A DNA stretch of 64,000 nucleotides, taken from Spirochaetota bacterium (GTDB lineage: Bacteria > Spirochaetota > UBA4802 > UBA5550). Below the pieces are notes generated by a model. The model was not told where the DNA came from and ran no database searches. It was given only the letters and a program-made list of their open reading frames with translations. The stretch lies in the NCBI GenBank assembly GCA_963664815.2, contig CAXXHB010000003.1:4096001-4160000 (forward strand), in the 5' to 3' direction. Positions 40,529 through 51,403 of this stretch are shown here, piece by piece (position 1 is the stretch's first letter; the number at the start of each line of letters is the position of its first letter). A program made the position numbers and the translations under genes.

Positions 40529-41014
40529 ATGAAAAAATACATTACATTTCCTTTATTCATGCTGATCCTTATCCTGTCCTGCACGGGAAAAGATAGAGCT
40601 AACGACCAGAAAGCCCGTCTGAGATATATAAATAAAAAGTACATGTTCACCCTCCAGTTTCCAGAAAGATGGGGCTATTATATGGATTTCGAAAAAAAAG
40701 AGATAATTGACCCGCAGATTGTTATCCCGATTGTTTTTTTTGCACTCCCCACAAAATCACGGGAGTGGCAACCGTTAAATGTGCCGGCAGGATATAGTGA
40801 ACTTTTTTACGTAAGAATATTCACACACGATCAATGGAAATTATTTCAAGAAAAATATAAATCCGGTGAAGATTTTCCGCAAAACGACAGGCTTTTCACA
40901 ACTGGTAAAAACTTTGTGTATATGATCAGATATCCTGTTTCAATACCGGTTGACCTCTACCACTACATGAAAGAGTCCGAATCTGTTACTGCAACTTTTA
41001 AGATTATTAAATAA
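40529..41014 (+). CDS. Putative lipoprotein, hypothetical
   Basis: MKK + hydrophobic stretch + ILSC spirochaetal lipobox. Confidence 0.68.
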   Translation: MKKYITFPLFMLILILSCTGKDRANDQKARLRYINKKYMFTLQFPERWGYYMDFEKKEIIDPQIVIPIVFFALPTKSREWQPLNVPAGYSELFYVRIFTHDQWKLFQEKYKSGEDFPQNDRLFTTGKNFVYMIRYPVSIPVDLYHYMKESESVTATFKIIK

Positions 41015-41379: not shown

Positions 41380-42099
41380 ATGATAAAAAAGATATTCTTT
41401 ACGGGCATATTTTTGATTTTTACGATATCTCTTTACTCTCAGGCCCCGGGGACAAATAAAACCACCGTAACCGAAGATAAAAAAGCCACAACAGATGAAA
41501 AGAAGACTGTTACTGAAGAAAAGAAAAATACTCCTGCGGAAGTCAAAGCTTCATCTAATTCAGCAGCGCATGAATTTATCGGTAAACTTGGAACCGGTTA
41601 TGCTTCAGATCCGGGGAAATTCGGACTTGATTTGAGCCTTAACTACATTTTCAACCTTGATCCTGTTTTTGTTTTCGGATTTGAGGGTGATCTTTTCTGG
41701 ATAAAATGGAACAATGCACTCAGTGATGTTAATGCCGGGGGTTCAGCAAACGGTTCACTCAAGGCGGAAACAAACCTTTACACAATTCCGGTTTTTGCAA
41801 ACGCCCAGATAAGATTTCCTTTTCTCAGGGATAAGATATATGTAATGCCTGCAATAACCGTCGGACTCGGCTACTGTTTTATGGTTCTCGATTATGACTC
41901 TGATACTAACAAAGGAACCGATTTATACAGTGGTTTTGCATGGCAGGTACTCGCTTCTTTTTCCAATAAAATATATAAGGATTCAGCCGTTGAATTCGTA
42001 TTTGATCTGGGGTACAGAGGACTAAGTCCTGACAGAAATAATGTTGAAATAGACATGTCAGGATTCATTACAAGACTCGGCGTAAAAATGAATATGTAA
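41380..42099 (+). CDS. Outer-membrane beta-barrel protein with a K/E/T-rich N-terminal linker
   Basis: CAGGAG RBS; signal peptide; amphipathic strands (GKLGTGY, FGFEGD, VGLGY, FDLGYR, TRLGVKMNM). Confidence 0.7.
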   Translation: MIKKIFFTGIFLIFTISLYSQAPGTNKTTVTEDKKATTDEKKTVTEEKKNTPAEVKASSNSAAHEFIGKLGTGYASDPGKFGLDLSLNYIFNLDPVFVFGFEGDLFWIKWNNALSDVNAGGSANGSLKAETNLYTIPVFANAQIRFPFLRDKIYVMPAITVGLGYCFMVLDYDSDTNKGTDLYSGFAWQVLASFSNKIYKDSAVEFVFDLGYRGLSPDRNNVEIDMSGFITRLGVKMNM

Positions 42100-42109
42100 G
42101 GGAATAGCG

Positions 42110-43045
42110 ATGAAAAGAAAAGTTTTCCTTTTAATCTTAATTGTCTTTCTGTTATCCATCTTCTCATGTAAAGAAGAGAACAGAAAGATCAGGATAGGAA
42201 TTCTTCCGGTCATCGATACCCTTCCTCTTGTTGTTGCCGATTCAGAGGGTCTCTTTAAGAAAGAGGGACTTGATGTTGAACTTATTATATTCAACAGTGC
42301 CCTTGAAAGAGACGCGGCTTTTACTGCAGGAAATCTTGACGGGGCATTTGGAGATCTTATAAATTTCCTTCTCATGATAAAAAATGGTATCGATACACAG
42401 CTCGTCTGCGAATCATACCATACCTCAGATAAGGGAATAATGTTCGGATTGATGGCATCTCCGGGATCACCAATAAAAAACATCAACGAAATTAATAAAG
42501 AACAGATTGCAATATCGCGCGGTTCAATAATTGATTTTTTTCTTGATCAGATTGCTCTTTCTAAAAATGTTTCTCCTGAAAGTCTTAACAAACTTGAAGT
42601 AAAAACCATCCCTGTAAGATATCAGATGCTGATTTCCGGCTCGATTAAACTCGCGCTGCTGCCTGAACCTCTTGTCAGTAAAGGGATAAAAGACGGCGCA
42701 AAGCTTGTTGCTGACGACAGGGGTCTTAATACTACGGCTACAGTAATAATGTTCAGAAATGATTTTCTGGAAAACAACCGCATGCTCATGAAAAAATTTA
42801 TAAAGGCTTACAACGGCAGCGTCAGAAAAATAAACAGCTCCCCGGAAAAATTTAAAAATATTATGACAACCAAACTCCGGTTGCCGGCGGACATTAAAGA
42901 TACTTTTAAAACCCCTGTTTTCCATGAAGCTGTTATTCCCGCAGAAAAAGACGTAATGCTGGTATACAGCTGGATGAAAAAAAACGGTATGATTTCAATA
43001 CCCGTTGAGTATAAAAAACTTATCCGGCCGATTGACGAAAAGTGA
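42110..43045 (+). CDS. ABC transporter substrate-binding lipoprotein (SsuA/NMT1/THI5-like)
   Basis: IFSC lipobox; IRIGILP..DTLPLVVA...GLFKKEGLDVEL; LPEP. Confidence 0.88.
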   Translation: MKRKVFLLILIVFLLSIFSCKEENRKIRIGILPVIDTLPLVVADSEGLFKKEGLDVELIIFNSALERDAAFTAGNLDGAFGDLINFLLMIKNGIDTQLVCESYHTSDKGIMFGLMASPGSPIKNINEINKEQIAISRGSIIDFFLDQIALSKNVSPESLNKLEVKTIPVRYQMLISGSIKLALLPEPLVSKGIKDGAKLVADDRGLNTTATVIMFRNDFLENNRMLMKKFIKAYNGSVRKINSSPEKFKNIMTTKLRLPADIKDTFKTPVFHEAVIPAEKDVMLVYSWMKKNGMISIPVEYKKLIRPIDEK

Positions 43046-43773
43046 TCAGGCTAGAATCAGTCAACAAGAGATATTCCGGGACCACTATATTACAGGATAT
43101 CTCATTCAATATTGAGAACGGAAAGTCTCTGTCAATAATAGGGCCTTCCGGCTGCGGCAAAACTACTCTTCTCTACATGATTGCGGGACTGATCCGGCCT
43201 TCAGGCGGAACTATTCTGTTAAATAACAGGGAGATAAAAGCTCCTGATTCAAAAACAGCATTTATACTGCAGGATTACGGTCTCCTGCCATGGAAGAGTG
43301 TAATCCAGAACGTGTCGTTGGGAATGAAAATAAAGAAATATCCGAAAGAGATAATTGCTGCTGTAACAGAAAAAATTCTTCACGATCTCGGAATATACGC
43401 TCACCGGGACAAGTACCCCGCAACTTTAAGCGGCGGAGAGAAGCAGAGAGTTGCCATTGCACGCGCGCTATCAACCGAGCCTGAAATTCTTCTTATGGAT
43501 GAACCTTTCTCATCACTTGATACTCTTACGAGAGAAAAACTCCAGCAGGCAGTTTATGATATACACAGAAAGGGGAATCTTACACTGCTGACTGTAACCC
43601 ATAGTATTGAAGAAGCAGTTTTCCTTGGAGATACTATACTTGTTATGGCCGGTGGACCGGGGAGAATAATTTCCACTATCAGTAATTCTTCACGCAGAAG
43701 AAAAGATTTCAGAAACTCAGTGGAATTTTACTCAACCTGCGGTTCAATAAGAGGTATAATCGGAGATTTATGA
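43042..43773 (+). CDS. ABC transporter ATP-binding protein (TauB/SsuB-like)
   Basis: GPSGCGKT, LQDYGLLPW, LSGGEKQRVAIAR, LMDEPFS, VTHSIEEAV. Confidence 0.93.
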   Translation: MIRLESVNKRYSGTTILQDISFNIENGKSLSIIGPSGCGKTTLLYMIAGLIRPSGGTILLNNREIKAPDSKTAFILQDYGLLPWKSVIQNVSLGMKIKKYPKEIIAAVTEKILHDLGIYAHRDKYPATLSGGEKQRVAIARALSTEPEILLMDEPFSSLDTLTREKLQQAVYDIHRKGNLTLLTVTHSIEEAVFLGDTILVMAGGPGRIISTISNSSRRRKDFRNSVEFYSTCGSIRGIIGDL

Positions 43774-45407
43774 TACAGAGGATCCCCTTTATTAATCTTT
43801 TTATGACTGTTTCAGCTATCTTTATTATATGGAAGATTGCTTCACTGGCAGCTTCTTCCCCCGTTCTGCCGTCTCCGGAAAATGTTTTTATAGCCTTTAT
43901 CAATGAAGCGCGGATGCCGCTGTTCTGGAGTCATTTTGGAATAAGTGCATGGAGGGTATGTGCAAGTATTGCTATTTCATGGATTATTGCATTCCCATTG
44001 GGGGCGGTTCTAGGGTACAGCTCCGCTATGGATAAAATTTTTTCACCGGTTGTTTATCTTGCTTATCCTGTGCCGAAAATGGTTCTGCTGCCGATTGTTG
44101 TTTTGTTTTTTGGTTTAGGGGACATATCAAAGGTTATTCTTATTACGCTTATCCTCTTTTTTCAGATTCTTGTAGCTGTACGTGACGGAGTGCGCTCGGT
44201 CAACTCCAGATATTACGATTCGGTAGAATCAATGGGTGGGAGTATTTACGATATTTTCATGCACGTTGTGATTCCTGCCGCTCTCCCTTATAGTTTCACG
44301 GCAATAAGAATATCTGCGGGGACGGCGATCTCTGTATTATTCTTTGCTGAATCTTTCGCCACATCAAGCGGCCTGGGATATCTTATTATGGACGCATGGG
44401 CGCGGGCAGATTATATTATGATTTTTGTAGGCATAACAGGAATGAGCATCATGGGACTTATCCTGTTTATTATATTCTCTCTGCTTGAGAAAAAATTTTG
44501 TGCATGGAACTTTACAATGGAAAATGATAAATCACCGGCTGAGGGCATCCTCTCCAAAACTGTAACCTATTCAAAAATGATAAAACTATCGCATACACTT
44601 TTTGCTCTCCCCTTTGCCCTGTCGGGCCTGGTGCTTGCACTGCGGGAGCATAATGTTACACTCCCCATGGTATTCTGGATAATTATAGCAATGGTGGGGG
44701 CGCGTTCAGCAGCCATGGGATTTAACCGTATTGCTGATGCCGATATTGATGCAGAAAATCCGCGAACTGCAATACGTGAGATCCCGTCGGGAAATATTTC
44801 AAGAAAAGAAGCCCTCATCTTTACAATATTTTCTTCAGCCCTGCTGGTTTTTTCTGCGGCAATGCTTTCCGAAATCTGTCTGTGGCTTTCATTCCCGCTT
44901 CTCCTCTTTCTTTTTTTCTATTCTTACACAAAGCGCTTTACATGGCTTGCCCATATCTACCTCGGTTTCGCTATAGGGCTTGCGCCAGTGGCTGTATGGA
45001 TTGCTATTGCCGGCATCCCTGAGTTACCGGTTATACTCCTTGCCCTTGTCCTGATGACACACATTGCCGGATTTGACATACTCTATTCATGCCAGGATAT
45101 TGAGTTTGACAGGAAAAAAAATCTTTTTTCCATACCGGCGCGATTCGGCATAAAAAAGGCTTTTTTATTCTCCGCAGCACTTCATATACTGACAACTGCT
45201 CTGCTTTCTCTTCTCTACTTTACTGCAGGATTTGGAATTTACTACTTTATTTTTATAATTGTAATTGCCATACTATATATAATAGAACATAAAATCGTTA
45301 ACCCCGATGATATTTCAAATATCAATATTGCATTTTTTCATATTAACAGTATTATATCTGTAGCTGTATTTGCTGCTGTACTAACAGGATATCTTACAGG
45401 CAGATGA
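43770..45407 (+). CDS. Fusion of an ABC permease (SsuC/TauC-like) and an MqnP-type UbiA-family polyprenyltransferase
   Basis: Residues 1-~248 are a permease (LPSP, YPVPK, EAA-like loop, VVIPAALP, GLGYLI). Residues ~250-545 are MqnP-like (IKLSHTLFALPFA, ARSAAMGFNRIADADIDAENPRT, YSYTKRFT, GFDILYSCQDIEFD). No stop at the junction. Confidence 0.88.
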   Translation: MIQRIPFINLFMTVSAIFIIWKIASLAASSPVLPSPENVFIAFINEARMPLFWSHFGISAWRVCASIAISWIIAFPLGAVLGYSSAMDKIFSPVVYLAYPVPKMVLLPIVVLFFGLGDISKVILITLILFFQILVAVRDGVRSVNSRYYDSVESMGGSIYDIFMHVVIPAALPYSFTAIRISAGTAISVLFFAESFATSSGLGYLIMDAWARADYIMIFVGITGMSIMGLILFIIFSLLEKKFCAWNFTMENDKSPAEGILSKTVTYSKMIKLSHTLFALPFALSGLVLALREHNVTLPMVFWIIIAMVGARSAAMGFNRIADADIDAENPRTAIREIPSGNISRKEALIFTIFSSALLVFSAAMLSEICLWLSFPLLLFLFFYSYTKRFTWLAHIYLGFAIGLAPVAVWIAIAGIPELPVILLALVLMTHIAGFDILYSCQDIEFDRKKNLFSIPARFGIKKAFLFSAALHILTTALLSLLYFTAGFGIYYFIFIIVIAILYIIEHKIVNPDDISNINIAFFHINSIISVAVFAAVLTGYLTGR

Positions 45408-45417
45408 AAGAAGGTTT

Positions 45418-46002
45418 ATGAAAAAAACAATAATTACAGGTATAACAGGGGCTTCAGGAAGCATATATGCCCTCAACTTTCTCAGACATGCTTCAGCGCA
45501 TGGAATCGATTTACGTATTATTGTATCATCTAACGGAGAAGCTGTGTTTAAACATGAAACCGGGATGAGTGTATCGGAAGCCATCATGGGACTTGACGTT
45601 TTCCCGAAGGAGACCGGTTCAATAAGACTTTACGATAACAATGACATGTTTGCGGATATAGCAAGCGGCACACATAAGACAGACGGCATGGTTATTGTAC
45701 CATGTTCCATGAAAACACTTTCAGGTATTGCAAACGGCTATTCCTCATCCCTGCTGGAACGCGCAGCAGATGTAATGCTTAAAGAAAGGAGAGACCTTAT
45801 CCTCACTTTAAGAGAGACTCCTCTCAGTCTTGTTCATTTGAGGAACATGGTTCACGCAGCAGAGGCCGGGGCCATAATACTCCCTGCAGCACCCGGGTTA
45901 TATCACAAACCTGAAACAATTGATGACCTTGCAGATTTTATTACCGGGAAAATATTCGATCAGCTTGGAATAGAACACTCTCTGAATACTGTCTGGAGAT
46001 AG
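45418..46002 (+). CDS. ubiX: Flavin prenyltransferase UbiX
   Basis: GITGASG, IASG, PCSMKTL, RAADVMLKERR, RETPL. Confidence 0.94.
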   Translation: MKKTIITGITGASGSIYALNFLRHASAHGIDLRIIVSSNGEAVFKHETGMSVSEAIMGLDVFPKETGSIRLYDNNDMFADIASGTHKTDGMVIVPCSMKTLSGIANGYSSSLLERAADVMLKERRDLILTLRETPLSLVHLRNMVHAAEAGAIILPAAPGLYHKPETIDDLADFITGKIFDQLGIEHSLNTVWR

Positions 46003-46057
46003 CCTTTTATTTATAGTTTATATAAATAATAAGAAAATTAAAAACTGGAAATCAAAC

Positions 46058-47896
46058 ATGAAAAAAAACCACAGAAATCTCACCGGCTTTATAAATGAGC
46101 TTGAAAAAGAAAATGAATTAATCCGGTTTAACAAGCCGGTATCAAATATTCTTGAAATCACAGAAATCACAGACCGCATGTCAAAACTCCCCGGAGGAGG
46201 CAAGGCCTTACTATTTGAAAACGTTACCGGGTATGATTATCCCGTTCTTATAAACCAGTTCGGCAGCATCAAACGGATTAACATGGCTTTTGGAAGCGAG
46301 AGCCTCGACCTGCTGGCAGGAAGGCTTCAGAATATAATAAATACAAAGCCGCCAAAAACTTTTATTGAAAAAGTCAGGCTCATCCCTGAACTTATAAAAT
46401 ATTCACAGTTTCTTCCGCGCACAATTAAAGGGAAAGCCCCGTGCCAGGAGATTATACATACCGGGAATGATGTAGATCTCGGCAAGATGCCGGTTCTTTT
46501 CTGCTGGCCCGGTGACGGAGGCCCCTTCATCACACTCCCGGTTGTTTTCACAAAGGGATTTAGCGACGGTAAACACAACGCCGGAATGTACAGGATGCAG
46601 GTTTATGACAGAAACACAACAGGTATGCACTGGCATATACACAAGGACGGGGCACACCATTACCACGAATATCTCAGGGAGGGGAAAAGGATGGAGGTTG
46701 CTGTCGCTATAGGTACTGACCCGGCGGTAACATATTCTGCCACTGCTCCTCTGCCTCGCGGAGTTGATGAAATGCTTCTGGCAGGGTTTATAAGACAAAA
46801 ACCGGTTGAAATGGTAAAATGCATCACTGTTGATATCGAAGTACCTGCTGAATCCGAGTTCATTATTGAGGGATATGTTGATCCCGGTGAATCCAGGATA
46901 GAAGGACCCTTCGGCGATCATACCGGGTATTATTCACTCAAAGGGGATTACCCCGTTTTCCATGTTACAGCCGTTACAAGCAGAAAAAACCCGGTGTACA
47001 GCGCAACAATTGTCGGCAAACCACCGATGGAGGACTGCTACTTGGCTCTCGCCACGGAAAGAATATTTCTACCCATGATAAAAACTGTTCTTCCGGAAAT
47101 TATCGATTATATGCTGCCCTGGGAAGGTGTATTTCACAATATTGCGGTTGTTGCAATTGAAAAGGAATTTCCAGGCCACGCGGTGAAAGTTATGAACGGG
47201 CTGTGGGGTTCCGGTCAGATGAGTTTCGCTAAAATTCTGGTTATGATAGATGAGCCCTCTCTCCTCTCTGACAGAACCGGGCTTATGATGCATATACTAA
47301 ACACTGTGGATTTGTCATCAGACATAATTCTTACAAAAGGGATACTCGATGTGCTTGACCACTCTGCAGACAAACCTCTTTACGGTTCAAAACTCGGGAT
47401 AGATGTGACAAAGCGTATAAAAGGGGAGGATAAAAGATCCGACAACTATATACATGGAAAATCAGATTATAAAAAAATTGAAAGCCTCGCGTTGGCTCTC
47501 GACAGAAAAATTACAGCTTCAAGAACGTTATTTGATGAATGCAGAAACAGGATTGTTATGCTCTCAGTAAAAAAAGATAAAAAAGCAAACTCCCATTATT
47601 TTTTAAAAAAAATCCTCAACTCCTCTCTTGCTCATGAAGGATTAATTATAATATTCAATCATGATATAGATCTGAACAATGATTCTTTTACTCTCTGGAA
47701 AGTATTTAATAATGTCGATCCTGTCCGGGATATTACTCAGGAAAAGGGATGCATGATAATTGACGCTACTAAAAAAGGAATCAGTGACGGGCATACCAGG
47801 GAATGGCCGGATGATATTGAAATGACAAAAGAAGTAATTGAAAAAGTGGATTATATATTAAAAGATGAACCGGAATTTGAACATATTCCTTCGTAA
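46058..47896 (+). CDS. mqnL: UbiD-family prFMN decarboxylase, long futalosine-pathway type (MqnL-like)
   Basis: GKALLFEN, CWPGDGGPFITLP, NAGMYRMQ, MHWHIHKDG, EGPFGDHTGYY, VGKPPMED, DVLDH, duplicated C-terminal IDAT module; 612 aa. Confidence 0.85.
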   Translation: MKKNHRNLTGFINELEKENELIRFNKPVSNILEITEITDRMSKLPGGGKALLFENVTGYDYPVLINQFGSIKRINMAFGSESLDLLAGRLQNIINTKPPKTFIEKVRLIPELIKYSQFLPRTIKGKAPCQEIIHTGNDVDLGKMPVLFCWPGDGGPFITLPVVFTKGFSDGKHNAGMYRMQVYDRNTTGMHWHIHKDGAHHYHEYLREGKRMEVAVAIGTDPAVTYSATAPLPRGVDEMLLAGFIRQKPVEMVKCITVDIEVPAESEFIIEGYVDPGESRIEGPFGDHTGYYSLKGDYPVFHVTAVTSRKNPVYSATIVGKPPMEDCYLALATERIFLPMIKTVLPEIIDYMLPWEGVFHNIAVVAIEKEFPGHAVKVMNGLWGSGQMSFAKILVMIDEPSLLSDRTGLMMHILNTVDLSSDIILTKGILDVLDHSADKPLYGSKLGIDVTKRIKGEDKRSDNYIHGKSDYKKIESLALALDRKITASRTLFDECRNRIVMLSVKKDKKANSHYFLKKILNSSLAHEGLIIIFNHDIDLNNDSFTLWKVFNNVDPVRDITQEKGCMIIDATKKGISDGHTREWPDDIEMTKEVIEKVDYILKDEPEFEHIPS

Positions 47897-49339: not shown

Positions 49340-50785
49340 TTATTGCGCTCCGGATTGTTTCAGTATCTTAACTATTTCATCCTTGCCTTTGGTAGTTGCA
49401 TATATAAGTGCGGTTTTACCCTTTTTGTCTTTCATATTAACATCAGCTCCTTTTTCAAGCAATGCTTTCACGAGATCAGTTCTTCCGAAATAGCAAGCAA
49501 TCATCAGAGAGGTTTGACCTTCTCTGTCTTTCGCGTTAATATCTGCACCTTTTTCAATCAGATATTTCAGTGCTTCAGGTTTTCCGCTAATGATTAGATT
49601 GATCAGGGCGGTTTTACCCTTTTTGTCTTTCACGTTGACATCAGCACCTTTATCCATCAACATCTGCAAAACCTCTGTTTGCATCTTTACTATATCCTGG
49701 TCTACTCCGGGATAGATAATGTAATTTTCGAGTACGAATGCATGTATCAATGCAGTTTGACCGGCAAGGTCTTTCAGCTTGACATCTGCTCCCCTTTCCA
49801 GTAAAATTCTGACAACTGCGGTTTGCATCTTTCTGATTTCTGCATCAATTCCGCCCGGATTCACACTTATCATCAATGCAGTCTGGCCCTTTTTATCTTT
49901 TGTATTTATACCTGCACCTTTATCAAGTAATAGTTTTACAGTTTCGGTCATACCGGCGGCAGCCGCGTAAAACAGAGCGGTTTTCCCTTCATTGTCAATT
50001 GCGTTAATATCGATGCCTCTATCCAGCAGCAGATTTACTGCTTCAGACTGCCCTCTGGAAATTGCAGCCATAAGTGCGTTCTGCCCATCTTTGTCTTTTG
50101 CACTAATATCAGCCCCTTTATCAAGCAACATTTTCACTAAATTATAAGAAATACCTTCCCGATTATTCCGTTGCGCAGCATATAGCAATGGGGTTTTACC
50201 ATATTTGTCTCTTACATTAACATCAACACCTCTATCAAGAAATACTTTAATTGCCTCAGGTTCTCCTCGTCTGGCACATATCACTGTCAATGGAGTTTGA
50301 TCCAATGTATTTTGCACGTTAATATCGGCACCCTTTTCAAGCAGCATGTTGAGAATTTTAGCACCCGCCAGCCTGTCAGCAAGATAATTCCCCCCTGAAA
50401 CACGCAATATTGCAGTCAGGCCATTATTATCTTTTGCGTTAACATCAGCACCTTTATCAAGTAGCCTCTTTACAGCATTAATATTGGTAAAACCGACCGC
50501 AATCATCAATGCAGTATTGCCAGCTTTGTCTTTTGCATTGACATCGGCGCCTTTATCAATTAATATTTTTATAAGTTCATCATCTCCGTAATTACTCATT
50601 GTAATCAATGCTGTCAGCCCATTTCCGTCTCTTGCATTTACATCTGCACCGTTATTCAGTGCTTTAATAATTCCTCCCCTGTTTTCGTTTTCGAACGCTT
50701 TTACTAAATCTTCAGTAGAGCCTGCGTATACAGGCATGAAAGGAATAAGACCAAACAGCAAAAGGCAATTAACTATTCTTTTCAC
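49340..50785 (-). CDS. Exported ankyrin-repeat protein (~12 repeats)
   Basis: Many G.TAL..A...G....VK.LL.KGADVNAKD units; likely GTG start at 50785 after GAAGGAGA gives a signal peptide. Confidence 0.9.
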   Translation of the reverse strand: MKRIVNCLLLFGLIPFMPVYAGSTEDLVKAFENENRGGIIKALNNGADVNARDGNGLTALITMSNYGDDELIKILIDKGADVNAKDKAGNTALMIAVGFTNINAVKRLLDKGADVNAKDNNGLTAILRVSGGNYLADRLAGAKILNMLLEKGADINVQNTLDQTPLTVICARRGEPEAIKVFLDRGVDVNVRDKYGKTPLLYAAQRNNREGISYNLVKMLLDKGADISAKDKDGQNALMAAISRGQSEAVNLLLDRGIDINAIDNEGKTALFYAAAAGMTETVKLLLDKGAGINTKDKKGQTALMISVNPGGIDAEIRKMQTAVVRILLERGADVKLKDLAGQTALIHAFVLENYIIYPGVDQDIVKMQTEVLQMLMDKGADVNVKDKKGKTALINLIISGKPEALKYLIEKGADINAKDREGQTSLMIACYFGRTDLVKALLEKGADVNMKDKKGKTALIYATTKGKDEIVKILKQSGAQ

Positions 50786-51403
50786 AATATTCTCTCCTTC
50801 TAATATCCAGTTATCCCGAGAAATGTATAACTTAAAGTCGCTTTGCAAAACCTGGTATCGTCTTTAAACACGACTTCAGTTTTTTTCAGGCATAAATTAT
50901 TTTCTCTTTAAAATAAAAAAAACAATGTTAAAAAAGTGCCTTACCAGAAACAATAGTTATAACAATATAGTTATTGTATATAAACTGCAAATTCAATAAA
51001 AAATATATTCCTGAGCATTGACTCTTTGAACTTTTACTATTTTAATAATCGTCGGCATAACCACATCTTAATTGATTTTCAATATAAAACAAATTACTTT
51101 TAAAATCAGATTAATATTACATCTATCCGGATTTGTTCATAATTTAAAATGATCGGCAGGAAACTGTAGACGGTTTACTGACCCTTTACTGACAGTATAT
51201 TAACAGTAGTTTACTTATGTCTGAAAGGGTGAGCATACTGTTTGAATACTGTCAATAGACTCTCTGTCAAATAATAAGCGTTAAATAACAAACGGTACAT
51301 GTAAAAACATGCACTGATTAAAAACTTGAAAAAAAATAAACATCAATGTTTATATAGAAAACATTTATCATTTCCAGTAAATAATGCAGCAGGAGTTTTC
51401 ATA

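Follow-up and report, generated by a model that had tools for sequence, protein, structure and literature searches.

The 64,000-nucleotide stretch of DNA analysed here (the window; C3:4096001-4160000, on contig CAXXHB010000003.1) belongs to a 5.2-Mb, 96%-complete assembly of a Spirochaetota bacterium, GCA_963664815.2. It carries a cassette of six genes that encode a candidate outer-membrane barrel, the three parts of an ATP-binding cassette (ABC) importer and the late enzymes of the futalosine pathway to menaquinone, with the importer permease and the prenyltransferase MqnP joined in a single protein. We regard this cassette as a strong candidate for a menaquinone-precursor uptake route. An original prediction made from the window had described six co-oriented and tightly packed genes, and their coordinates and the gaps between them (10, -4, -4, 10 and 55 nt) are exactly as it claimed. 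The six open reading frames (ORFs) are the following.

41380-42099, + strand: candidate 8-stranded outer-membrane beta-barrel, 239 amino acids (aa); signal peptide, K/T/E-rich linker, then the barrel, as seen in a structural model
42110-43045, + strand: substrate-binding lipoprotein (SBP) of the NMT1/SsuA fold, 311 aa; assigned with Pfam/NCBIfam, AlphaFold2 (AF2) and Foldseek
43042-43773, + strand: ABC transporter ATPase, 243 aa, with a GTG start and a 4-nt overlap with the SBP stop; ABC_tran
43770-45407, + strand: fusion of a permease and an MqnP-type UbiA prenyltransferase (permease::MqnP), 545 aa; BPD_transp_1 and UbiA in one frame
45418-46002, + strand: UbiX/MqnM flavin prenyltransferase, 194 aa, which supplies prenylated flavin mononucleotide (prFMN) to the decarboxylase; NF004685, TIGR00421
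46058-47896, + strand: MqnL-type UbiD decarboxylase, 612 aa; TIGR03701

Residues 1 to ~255 of the fusion protein are the permease of an ABC importer and residues ~260-545 an MqnP-type UbiA prenyltransferase, with Pfam placing BPD_transp_1 at residues 75-239 and UbiA at residues 279-528 (PF01040, 184.6 bits). The protein scores 285.8 bits against TIGR01475 (ubiA_other), over the cut-off of 180.8, and it is 53-75% identical to unfused MqnP proteins that adjoin UbiX and MqnL. Its permease reaches 111 of the 347 bits required by the NCBIfam sulfonate/taurine-type model. Five residues, N319, D323, D327, D443 and D447, are invariant across 14 fused proteins and, in our own reading of the alignment, would represent both of the Asp-rich motifs of UbiA proteins. 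The database copy of this fusion is a protein of 497 aa with a later start, upstream of which W21, L33, P36 and E37 are invariant in relatives; because residues upstream of M49 are conserved in this way, the 545-aa reading from 43770 is better than a start at M49. A hydropathy count of the membrane helices was too crude to fix the topology of the protein.

Both enzymes encoded downstream pass the thresholds of their families. UbiX scores 208.1 bits against NF004685 (cut-off 188) and 199.6 bits against TIGR00421 (cut-off 108.9), and UbiD, in which UbiD_N, UbiD and UbiD_C are all present, scores 632.9 bits against TIGR03701, the menaquinone biosynthesis decarboxylase equivalog, over its cut-off of 495.9. 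The latter is of the MqnL type, the predicted prFMN-dependent decarboxylase of prenylated 1,4-dihydroxy-6-naphthoate. About 165 of its C-terminal residues lie beyond the TIGR03701 model, and relatives share this extension, as tblastn hits at related loci run on to query residues 587-608.

The SBP follows a signal peptide ending in SIFSC, matches NMT1_2 (55 bits) and NMT1 (48.9 bits) in Pfam and gives an AlphaFold2 model with a predicted local distance difference test score (pLDDT) of 92.7. Foldseek places this model beside Thi5, TauA, SsuA (template modelling (TM) score ~0.79), PqqT, ThiY and a thiamin-binding protein, several of which (ThiY, the thiamin-binding protein and PqqT) serve the uptake of cofactors or cofactor precursors, and a sequence search of the PDB returned one marginal match (E 6.6e-4 over 59 residues). 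Against SsuA_fam (TIGR01728) the protein scores 92.6 bits, under the cut-off of 163.5, and the ssuD/ssuE linkage that goes with that assignment is absent; public sources label it generically as a member of the NitT/TauT or MetQ/NlpA family. Across an alignment of 22 orthologues, 34-78% identical to the window protein, 33 residues are invariant, and because a signal peptide, a lipobox or a membrane anchor stands at the start of every orthologue, these proteins are predicted to be extracytoplasmic, as in importers. The ATPase matches ABC_tran with 115.5 bits, and its best NCBIfam rows are taurine-, tungstate- and nitrate-type importers, all below the equivalog cut-offs. An SBP, a BPD_transp_1 permease and an ATPase encoded together place the system with the type I ABC importers of the NitT/TauT group, by analogy with which transport is probably inward.

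The product of the first gene found no family match in Pfam, NCBIfam or a PDB sequence search. Its AlphaFold2 model (pLDDT 55.4, from 7 sequences) comprises a signal helix, a disordered K/T/E-rich linker and eight long strands, and its best Foldseek rows are all small outer-membrane barrels, though with weak scores (best E 4.6e-3, TM 0.26-0.35). The outer-membrane barrel named in the original prediction is thus plausible from the model, whereas the other identities it gave, an SBP lipoprotein, an ATPase, a permease-prenyltransferase fusion, UbiX and a long UbiD, all hold. Homologues of the barrel candidate were found by tblastn in all six fused Spirochaetota loci described below and in none of the 18 other fused loci. 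The window protein has a ~21-residue K/T/E-rich low-complexity insert after the signal peptide that the six relatives do not have.

The fusion is widespread. Both Pfam domains are present in 118 of its 120 best database relatives, the two exceptions being short pieces on short contigs, and these relatives come from Spirochaetota, Thermodesulfobacteriota, Syntrophorhabdaceae, Chloroflexota and Methanomassiliicoccales. A scan of species-representative genomes yielded 80 loci, which tblastn with the window proteins divides into 24 fused and 56 unfused. SBP and ATPase genes lie immediately upstream of the fusion in 23 of the 24 fused loci, and in the remaining one (L022) the contig starts 106 bp before the fusion; MqnL follows downstream in 20, with a contig edge ending three of the other four, and UbiX adjoins in 14. 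The unfused loci present a free-standing MqnP beside UbiX and/or MqnL without adjacent transporter genes, except for L038, which is a fused gene broken by a contig end, since its match begins at residue 206 at a contig start and SBP, ATPase and permease start lie at the end of another contig. The linkage of importer and MqnP is therefore real and conserved: the order SBP-ATPase-permease::MqnP-(UbiX)-MqnL is found again in 24 further genomes, which belong to several phyla and to both domains. Co-occurrence of this clade of SBPs with mqnP was one of the checks named in the original prediction.

A profile built from the 22 SBP orthologues finds matches of 244-425 bits in only four of 50 unfused genomes, namely that of the broken fusion L038 and G050, G066 and G061, and the next best match scores 85 bits. 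A UbiA-domain tree of 79 rows (L033 and L037, being too short, were left out) intermingles fused with unfused forms in line with taxonomy, and the fusion state requires at least six changes, three of which are forced by well-supported branches. At L101 in one of the unfused genomes (G050:C162, 1996-5808), an SBP (31% identical), an ATPase and a permease are followed by a separate and different UbiA-family gene (PF01040, 102.6 bits), which makes a second, unfused pairing of this type of transporter with a prenyltransferase.

Within the spirochaete itself, the original prediction was correct that MqnA-E are absent from the window and mistaken that the cell owns late enzymes only and depends on an imported head group. 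A search of the whole genome finds, ~3.1 Mb from the operon, an early futalosine cluster of mqnE, mqnA/D, mqnC and mqnD/A, in which the matches are as listed here.

C3:997360-1001868 cluster: MqnE-like radical-SAM gene, TIGR03700 363 bits, slightly under the equivalog cut-off
C3:997360-1001868 cluster: PF02621 gene 1 (MqnA/D), 210.7 bits
C3:997360-1001868 cluster: MqnC-like gene, TIGR03699 402 bits, slightly under the equivalog cut-off
C3:997360-1001868 cluster: nucleosidase-like match in the MqnB position, 27.5 bits, far below the cut-off
C3:997360-1001868 cluster: PF02621 gene 2 (MqnD/A), 230.3 bits

A MenG/UbiE methyltransferase is encoded at C3:595585 (227.9 bits against a cut-off of 158.35). 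With this early cluster and menG present, and with the sole UbiD-family gene and the sole MqnP-type UbiA of the genome both lying in the operon, the six genes are the operon that performs the late steps as a housekeeping function, in an organism whose futalosine pathway is full. Obligate salvage was accordingly rejected for this spirochaete on account of its early futalosine genes and menG. The original prediction had also named separate transcription of transporter and mqn genes in a full-pathway genome as evidence against itself; the pathway is indeed full, but permease and mqnP form a single reading frame and so cannot be transcribed separately.

The remaining UbiA matches in the genome are two MenA-like genes and an IspH-fused prenyltransferase. 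The first is a MenA-type 1,4-dihydroxy-2-naphthoate prenyltransferase at C3:464243-464953 (L010:1432-2331; TIGR00751, 249 bits against a cut-off of 102), and the second, weaker MenA-like gene lies at C3:812246-812974 (L009:1441-2361). Since the genome has neither MenB nor MenD over cut-off, both are orphan classical-pathway prenyltransferases alongside the futalosine pathway. The third match is a 583-aa ORF on the minus strand at C3:1910480-1911151 (L011:1384-3135) that joins IspH (TIGR00216, 257 bits) to a C-terminal UbiA-family domain, and it represents another enzyme-prenyltransferase fusion in the same genome as permease::MqnP.

The distribution of the ring-making genes among carriers of the fusion bears directly on what the importer is for. 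Of the 24 fused genomes, 11 each carry two PF02621 (MqnA/MqnD) genes, and MqnC/E-type genes (two, E <= 1e-40) occur in exactly the same 11, among which are all six fused Spirochaetota; the other 13 have neither MqnA/D nor MqnC/E. The unfused comparison covers 50 of 56 genomes (L086-L091 were left out) and finds PF02621 in 48, with the broken fusion L038 as one of the two negatives. Mapped onto the UbiA tree, the absence of MqnA/D takes six changes. The classical Men pathway was rejected as an alternative source of the head group, as MenB and MenD were over cut-off in none of 26 genomes (this genome, the 24 fused and that of L038), the MenB-like match in G006 reaching 294.5 bits, below the cut-off of 342.7. 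In five of five MqnA/D-negative genomes, one archaeal (that of L020, below) and four bacterial, UbiD passes the TIGR03701 cut-off (603-638 bits against 495.9), while the 4-hydroxy-3-polyprenylbenzoate UbiD model reaches only 371-408 bits of the 788 it requires. Because the MqnL equivalog cut-off is passed in genomes that lack the early pathway, these carriers appear to follow the chemistry of the futalosine route and hence to use its head group. The late steps and an importer without the ring genes is the pattern predicted by head-group salvage. What survives of the salvage module in the original prediction is the transporter tied to late futalosine enzymes, with ring genes absent in about half of the carriers; obligate cross-feeding in this spirochaete does not, so that the prediction as a whole is partly supported.

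Carriers in the archaeal order Methanomassiliicoccales present this pattern in a compact form. The locus L020 lies on a single-contig 2.55-Mb chromosome, and its relative L021 is labelled Methanomassiliicoccus. The L020 operon encodes an SBP, an ATPase, permease::MqnP, a MenG/UbiE methyltransferase (PF01209, 183.8 bits; TIGR01934, 222.5 bits against 158.35) and MqnL (TIGR03701, 623.9 bits against 495.9). The full fusion is present in 15 of 121 sampled genomes of this order, to which G009 belongs (14 full length and one cut), and other matches among the 121 cover the permease part only, with 26-33% identity. PF02621 was over cut-off in none of the 15 fusion-bearing genomes, which gave two sub-threshold rows of 22 and 19 bits, and UbiX was found elsewhere in the genome in five of five fusion-bearing genomes tested. 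Judged by their gene content, the archaeal carriers would encode uptake and every late step, and ring-making genes were not found by the searches made.

Our best reading of these data, to which we assign a probability of roughly 0.6, is that the cassette takes up a soluble naphthoate head group and prenylates it, an uptake-and-prenylate module that is facultative in this spirochaete and probably the only route to that head group elsewhere. From the context of the genes, 1,4-dihydroxy-6-naphthoate, or a compound very closely derived from it, is the most likely cargo, and the fusion probably serves hand-over from permease to prenyltransferase. In the proposed mechanism, the small outer-membrane barrel, the part for which support is weak, would admit the soluble solute to the periplasm, where the NMT1-fold lipoprotein would capture it, and an ATPase-driven permease dimer would carry it inward. 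The covalent link between permease and MqnP would let the solute emerge beside the active site of the prenyltransferase, where prenylation would commit it to the membrane. The prenylated product would then be decarboxylated by prFMN-dependent MqnL, with prFMN supplied by UbiX, and methylated by MenG encoded elsewhere. In this genome, where the de novo ring pathway is present, import would be facultative, a form of salvage or recapture that feeds the same MqnP as the endogenous intermediate, and in the many other carriers without the ring pathway it would be the sole source of the head group. A more ambitious claim, which we advance tentatively and would not back at even odds, is that this is a horizontally spread machine: a permease::MqnP importer that takes environmental 1,4-dihydroxy-6-naphthoate straight to menaquinone, that made it possible for anaerobic Thermodesulfobacteriota and Chloroflexota to lose the de novo futalosine pathway repeatedly, and that gives a Methanomassiliicoccales clade a complete import-prenylation-decarboxylation-methylation route to a menaquinone it could not otherwise make.

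Several observations weigh against the uptake-and-prenylate reading. The full early pathway is present in this genome and in all six fused Spirochaetota relatives, and the importer is therefore not needed for menaquinone here. The contrast in MqnA/D between fused and unfused genomes has a Fisher p of 1.7e-6 (1.2e-7 with L038 reclassified), values that treat genomes as independent and overstate the evidence because relatives share traits, and a tree-aware test reduces the comparison to three independent fused/unfused pairs on supported branches, which is not significant (median p = 1). None of the three pairs opposes fusion with loss, and a sign test on them is without power. Most of the genomes are metagenome-assembled genomes (MAGs) whose completeness is not stated, and where the four early genes occur they are usually on one contig, so that a single missing contig could mimic loss of the early genes; the 48 of 50 unfused genomes that retain PF02621 in similar assemblies suggest that this is uncommon. 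The SBP sequence holds nothing that points to a naphthoate, and acidic residues occupy many of its invariant positions (D36, E66, D82, E186, D202 and D203), which is at first sight unexpected for an anionic ligand. The fusion misses the NCBIfam models for MqnP (NF041586, 267.1 of 430 bits; NF041584, 229 of 420; NF041585, 222 of 375), though this is weak evidence as NF041584-NF041586 are lineage-specific 'exception' models. Finally, stand-alone SBP-ATPase-permease sets exist at L099 (G066:C1, 7166-9626) and L100 (G061:C33, 6188-8638), with SBPs ~40% identical to that of the window. They lie far from mqnP among response regulators, histidine kinases, a GGDEF protein and an Fe-only hydrogenase, in two genomes that both have the full futalosine pathway. 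The transporter can thus occur unfused and unlinked, which tempers the argument for an importer tied to MqnP but does not reverse it.

The scores below the MqnP-specific models, together with a cargo assignment drawn from context, leave room for the same machine to act on another cargo. 4-Hydroxybenzoate, 1,4-dihydroxy-2-naphthoate, an oxidised naphthoquinone carboxylate or a phenazine carboxylate could be imported and then prenylated and decarboxylated by the fused UbiA, UbiD and UbiX, and where the early Mqn genes are missing the product need not be menaquinone. UbiA/UbiD/UbiX trios handle 4-hydroxybenzoate in ubiquinone and plastoquinone synthesis, as passages of PMC4746308 describe, the archaeal fused proteins sit on long branches of the UbiA tree, and the orphan MenA-type gene means that the handling of naphthoates in this genome is not simple. 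We nevertheless consider a different cargo unlikely. UbiD passes the MqnL cut-off both in the window and in all five early-pathway-negative genomes and falls well short of the polyprenylbenzoate model, the fusion reaches only 109.6 bits against the 275.45 of the proteobacterial UbiA model, the fused UbiA domains interleave, at 50-60% identity, with unfused MqnP from genomes with the whole futalosine pathway, and a MenG/UbiE methyltransferase is encoded inside the archaeal operon.

The stand-alone transporter copies in G066 and G061, the merely generic NitT/TauT or MetQ/NlpA annotation of the SBP and the several gains or losses of fusion that the tree requires would also fit an arrangement with no functional coupling, in which an ordinary NitT/TauT-type importer of a sulfonate, nitrate, a pyrimidine or some other solute was joined to mqnP by chance read-through and spread with the operon. 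Such an accident seems improbable, as at least four phyla and two domains retain the fusion together with the adjoining SBP and ATPase genes, at SBP identities of 37-80%, and the SBP clade is nearly confined to fusion-bearing genomes, with no match above 85 bits in 46 of the 50 unfused ones. The SsuA cut-off is not reached and ssuD/E, tauD and nitrate genes are not adjacent. Loss of the ring pathway is moreover concentrated in the genomes that bear the fusion.

That this organism makes its own head group and that a barrel and a lipoprotein accompany the transporter in spirochaetes would suit a role in the outward direction, with finished menaquinone, demethylmenaquinone or a soluble naphthoquinone shuttle moved to the periplasm or outer membrane and the barrel as exit; the carriers are anaerobes, and quinone-based extracellular electron transfer is known in general terms from other taxa. 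We hold export or trafficking to be very improbable, because BPD_transp_1 permeases with an extracytoplasmic NMT1-type SBP are, as far as is generally known, importers, and the cassette occurs without the barrel in archaeal and Chloroflexota carriers, which we take from general knowledge to be single-membrane cells. Export would also leave the absence of the ring pathway in carriers unexplained.

The surroundings of the operon are otherwise unrelated to it, with an extracytoplasmic function (ECF) sigma/anti-sigma/VWA set upstream and a short-chain dehydrogenase/reductase (SDR) and an ankyrin-repeat gene downstream. The ankyrin protein (502 aa, window 49340-50848, minus strand) consists almost wholly of repeats (Ank_2, 308.7 bits). 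A search for known RNAs or riboswitches in or before the operon (Rfam) gave two sub-threshold rows at chance level only. A promoter scan returned no more promoter-like sites than shuffled sequence, and no intergenic terminator was seen, which is uninformative on the limits of the operon. One further gene lies just upstream.

40529-41014, + strand: conserved upstream lipoprotein, 161 aa; signal peptide ending in ILSC, with homologues found by tblastn

No Pfam family was found for this lipoprotein. Its tblastn homologues lie upstream of the module in six of six fused Spirochaetota loci and, at L034, directly upstream of an unfused mqnP. The lipoprotein may be associated with the locus, and its membership in the system is that of a candidate only. 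Its conservation at the fused loci and its position next to unfused mqnP at L034 suggest that a block of barrel, SBP, ATPase and permease was inserted between the lipoprotein gene and mqnP.

Comparison with characterized or predicted systems helps to place the cassette. Its UbiA-type, UbiD-type (TIGR03701) and UbiX genes share one operon, as expected of the late futalosine steps MqnP, MqnL and MqnM (of the SCO4491/4490/4492 type), and they co-occur in this genome with mqnA/C/D/E; it departs from that scheme in that MqnP is the C-terminal half of an ABC permease, that an SBP and an ATPase (in spirochaetes also a barrel) belong to the operon and that many carriers are without the early pathway. 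With ThiXYZ and its formylaminopyrimidine-binding ThiY, the thiamin-binding SBP and PqqT, which binds pyrroloquinoline quinone (PQQ), it shares the SBP fold (Foldseek E 1e-15 to 1e-16), the three-part importer and the logic of salvaging a costly cofactor building block, but the sequences are very distant and those importers are never fused to an enzyme that consumes the cargo. SsuABC and TauABC provide the best NCBIfam rows for SBP, ATPase and permease, as well as the SsuA structural match noted above; every equivalog and subfamily cut-off is nonetheless missed here, no desulfonating enzymes are nearby and the context is one of quinone biosynthesis. Salvage of a cofactor precursor by an NMT1-type ABC importer is therefore of a known kind, whereas the fusion of transporter and enzyme is unusual.

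Microbes have been proposed to exchange soluble menaquinone precursors, and feeding experiments have demonstrated this for an intermediate of the classical pathway (passages of PMC4746308 and PMC5738691). In the former (Ravcheev & Thiele 2016), the passages concerned present MqnP, MqnL and MqnM as predictions and leave menaquinone-precursor transporters still to be predicted and validated; in the latter (Fenn et al. 2017), they report that 1,4-dihydroxy-2-naphthoate (DHNA) feeds gut isolates and that transporters for such compounds are undescribed. The cross-feeding of gut bacteria with menA and menG only, as these sources present it, resembles our proposal in that a naphthoate made by neighbours is finished into menaquinone, and it differs in that it concerns the classical pathway with no transporter known, whereas here the futalosine route is involved and an importer candidate is tied to the first consuming enzyme. 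In the literature within reach of our search, outside which lie subscription papers and supplements, we found no description of an ABC-MqnP fusion or of a 6-naphthoate importer, and the words 'salvage', 'MqnP', 'fused' and 'uptake' did not occur in the searched passages of the 2026 survey 'Global distribution of isoprenoid quinones across Bacteria' (PMC13386864).

Our findings highlight an architecture that is unusual among ABC importers, a permease domain fused to a biosynthetic enzyme that would consume the cargo. The cassette offers a concrete candidate, with a soluble SBP and with a fusion that ties uptake to the first enzyme that commits the compound to the membrane. If the more ambitious claim is true, no transporter for a quinone head group will have been identified before this one, and anoxic habitats would hold a public pool of 1,4-dihydroxy-6-naphthoate that has so far gone unrecognised. 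As an uptake-and-prenylate module, the cassette would further explain how genomes with only MqnP, MqnL, UbiX and MenG synthesize menaquinone. It would also mark as quinone auxotrophs some sulfate reducers, syntrophs and Chloroflexota for which MAGs are the only source, a useful pointer for their cultivation. In the archaea, the cassette raises the question of menaquinone in the energy metabolism of some Methanomassiliicoccales.

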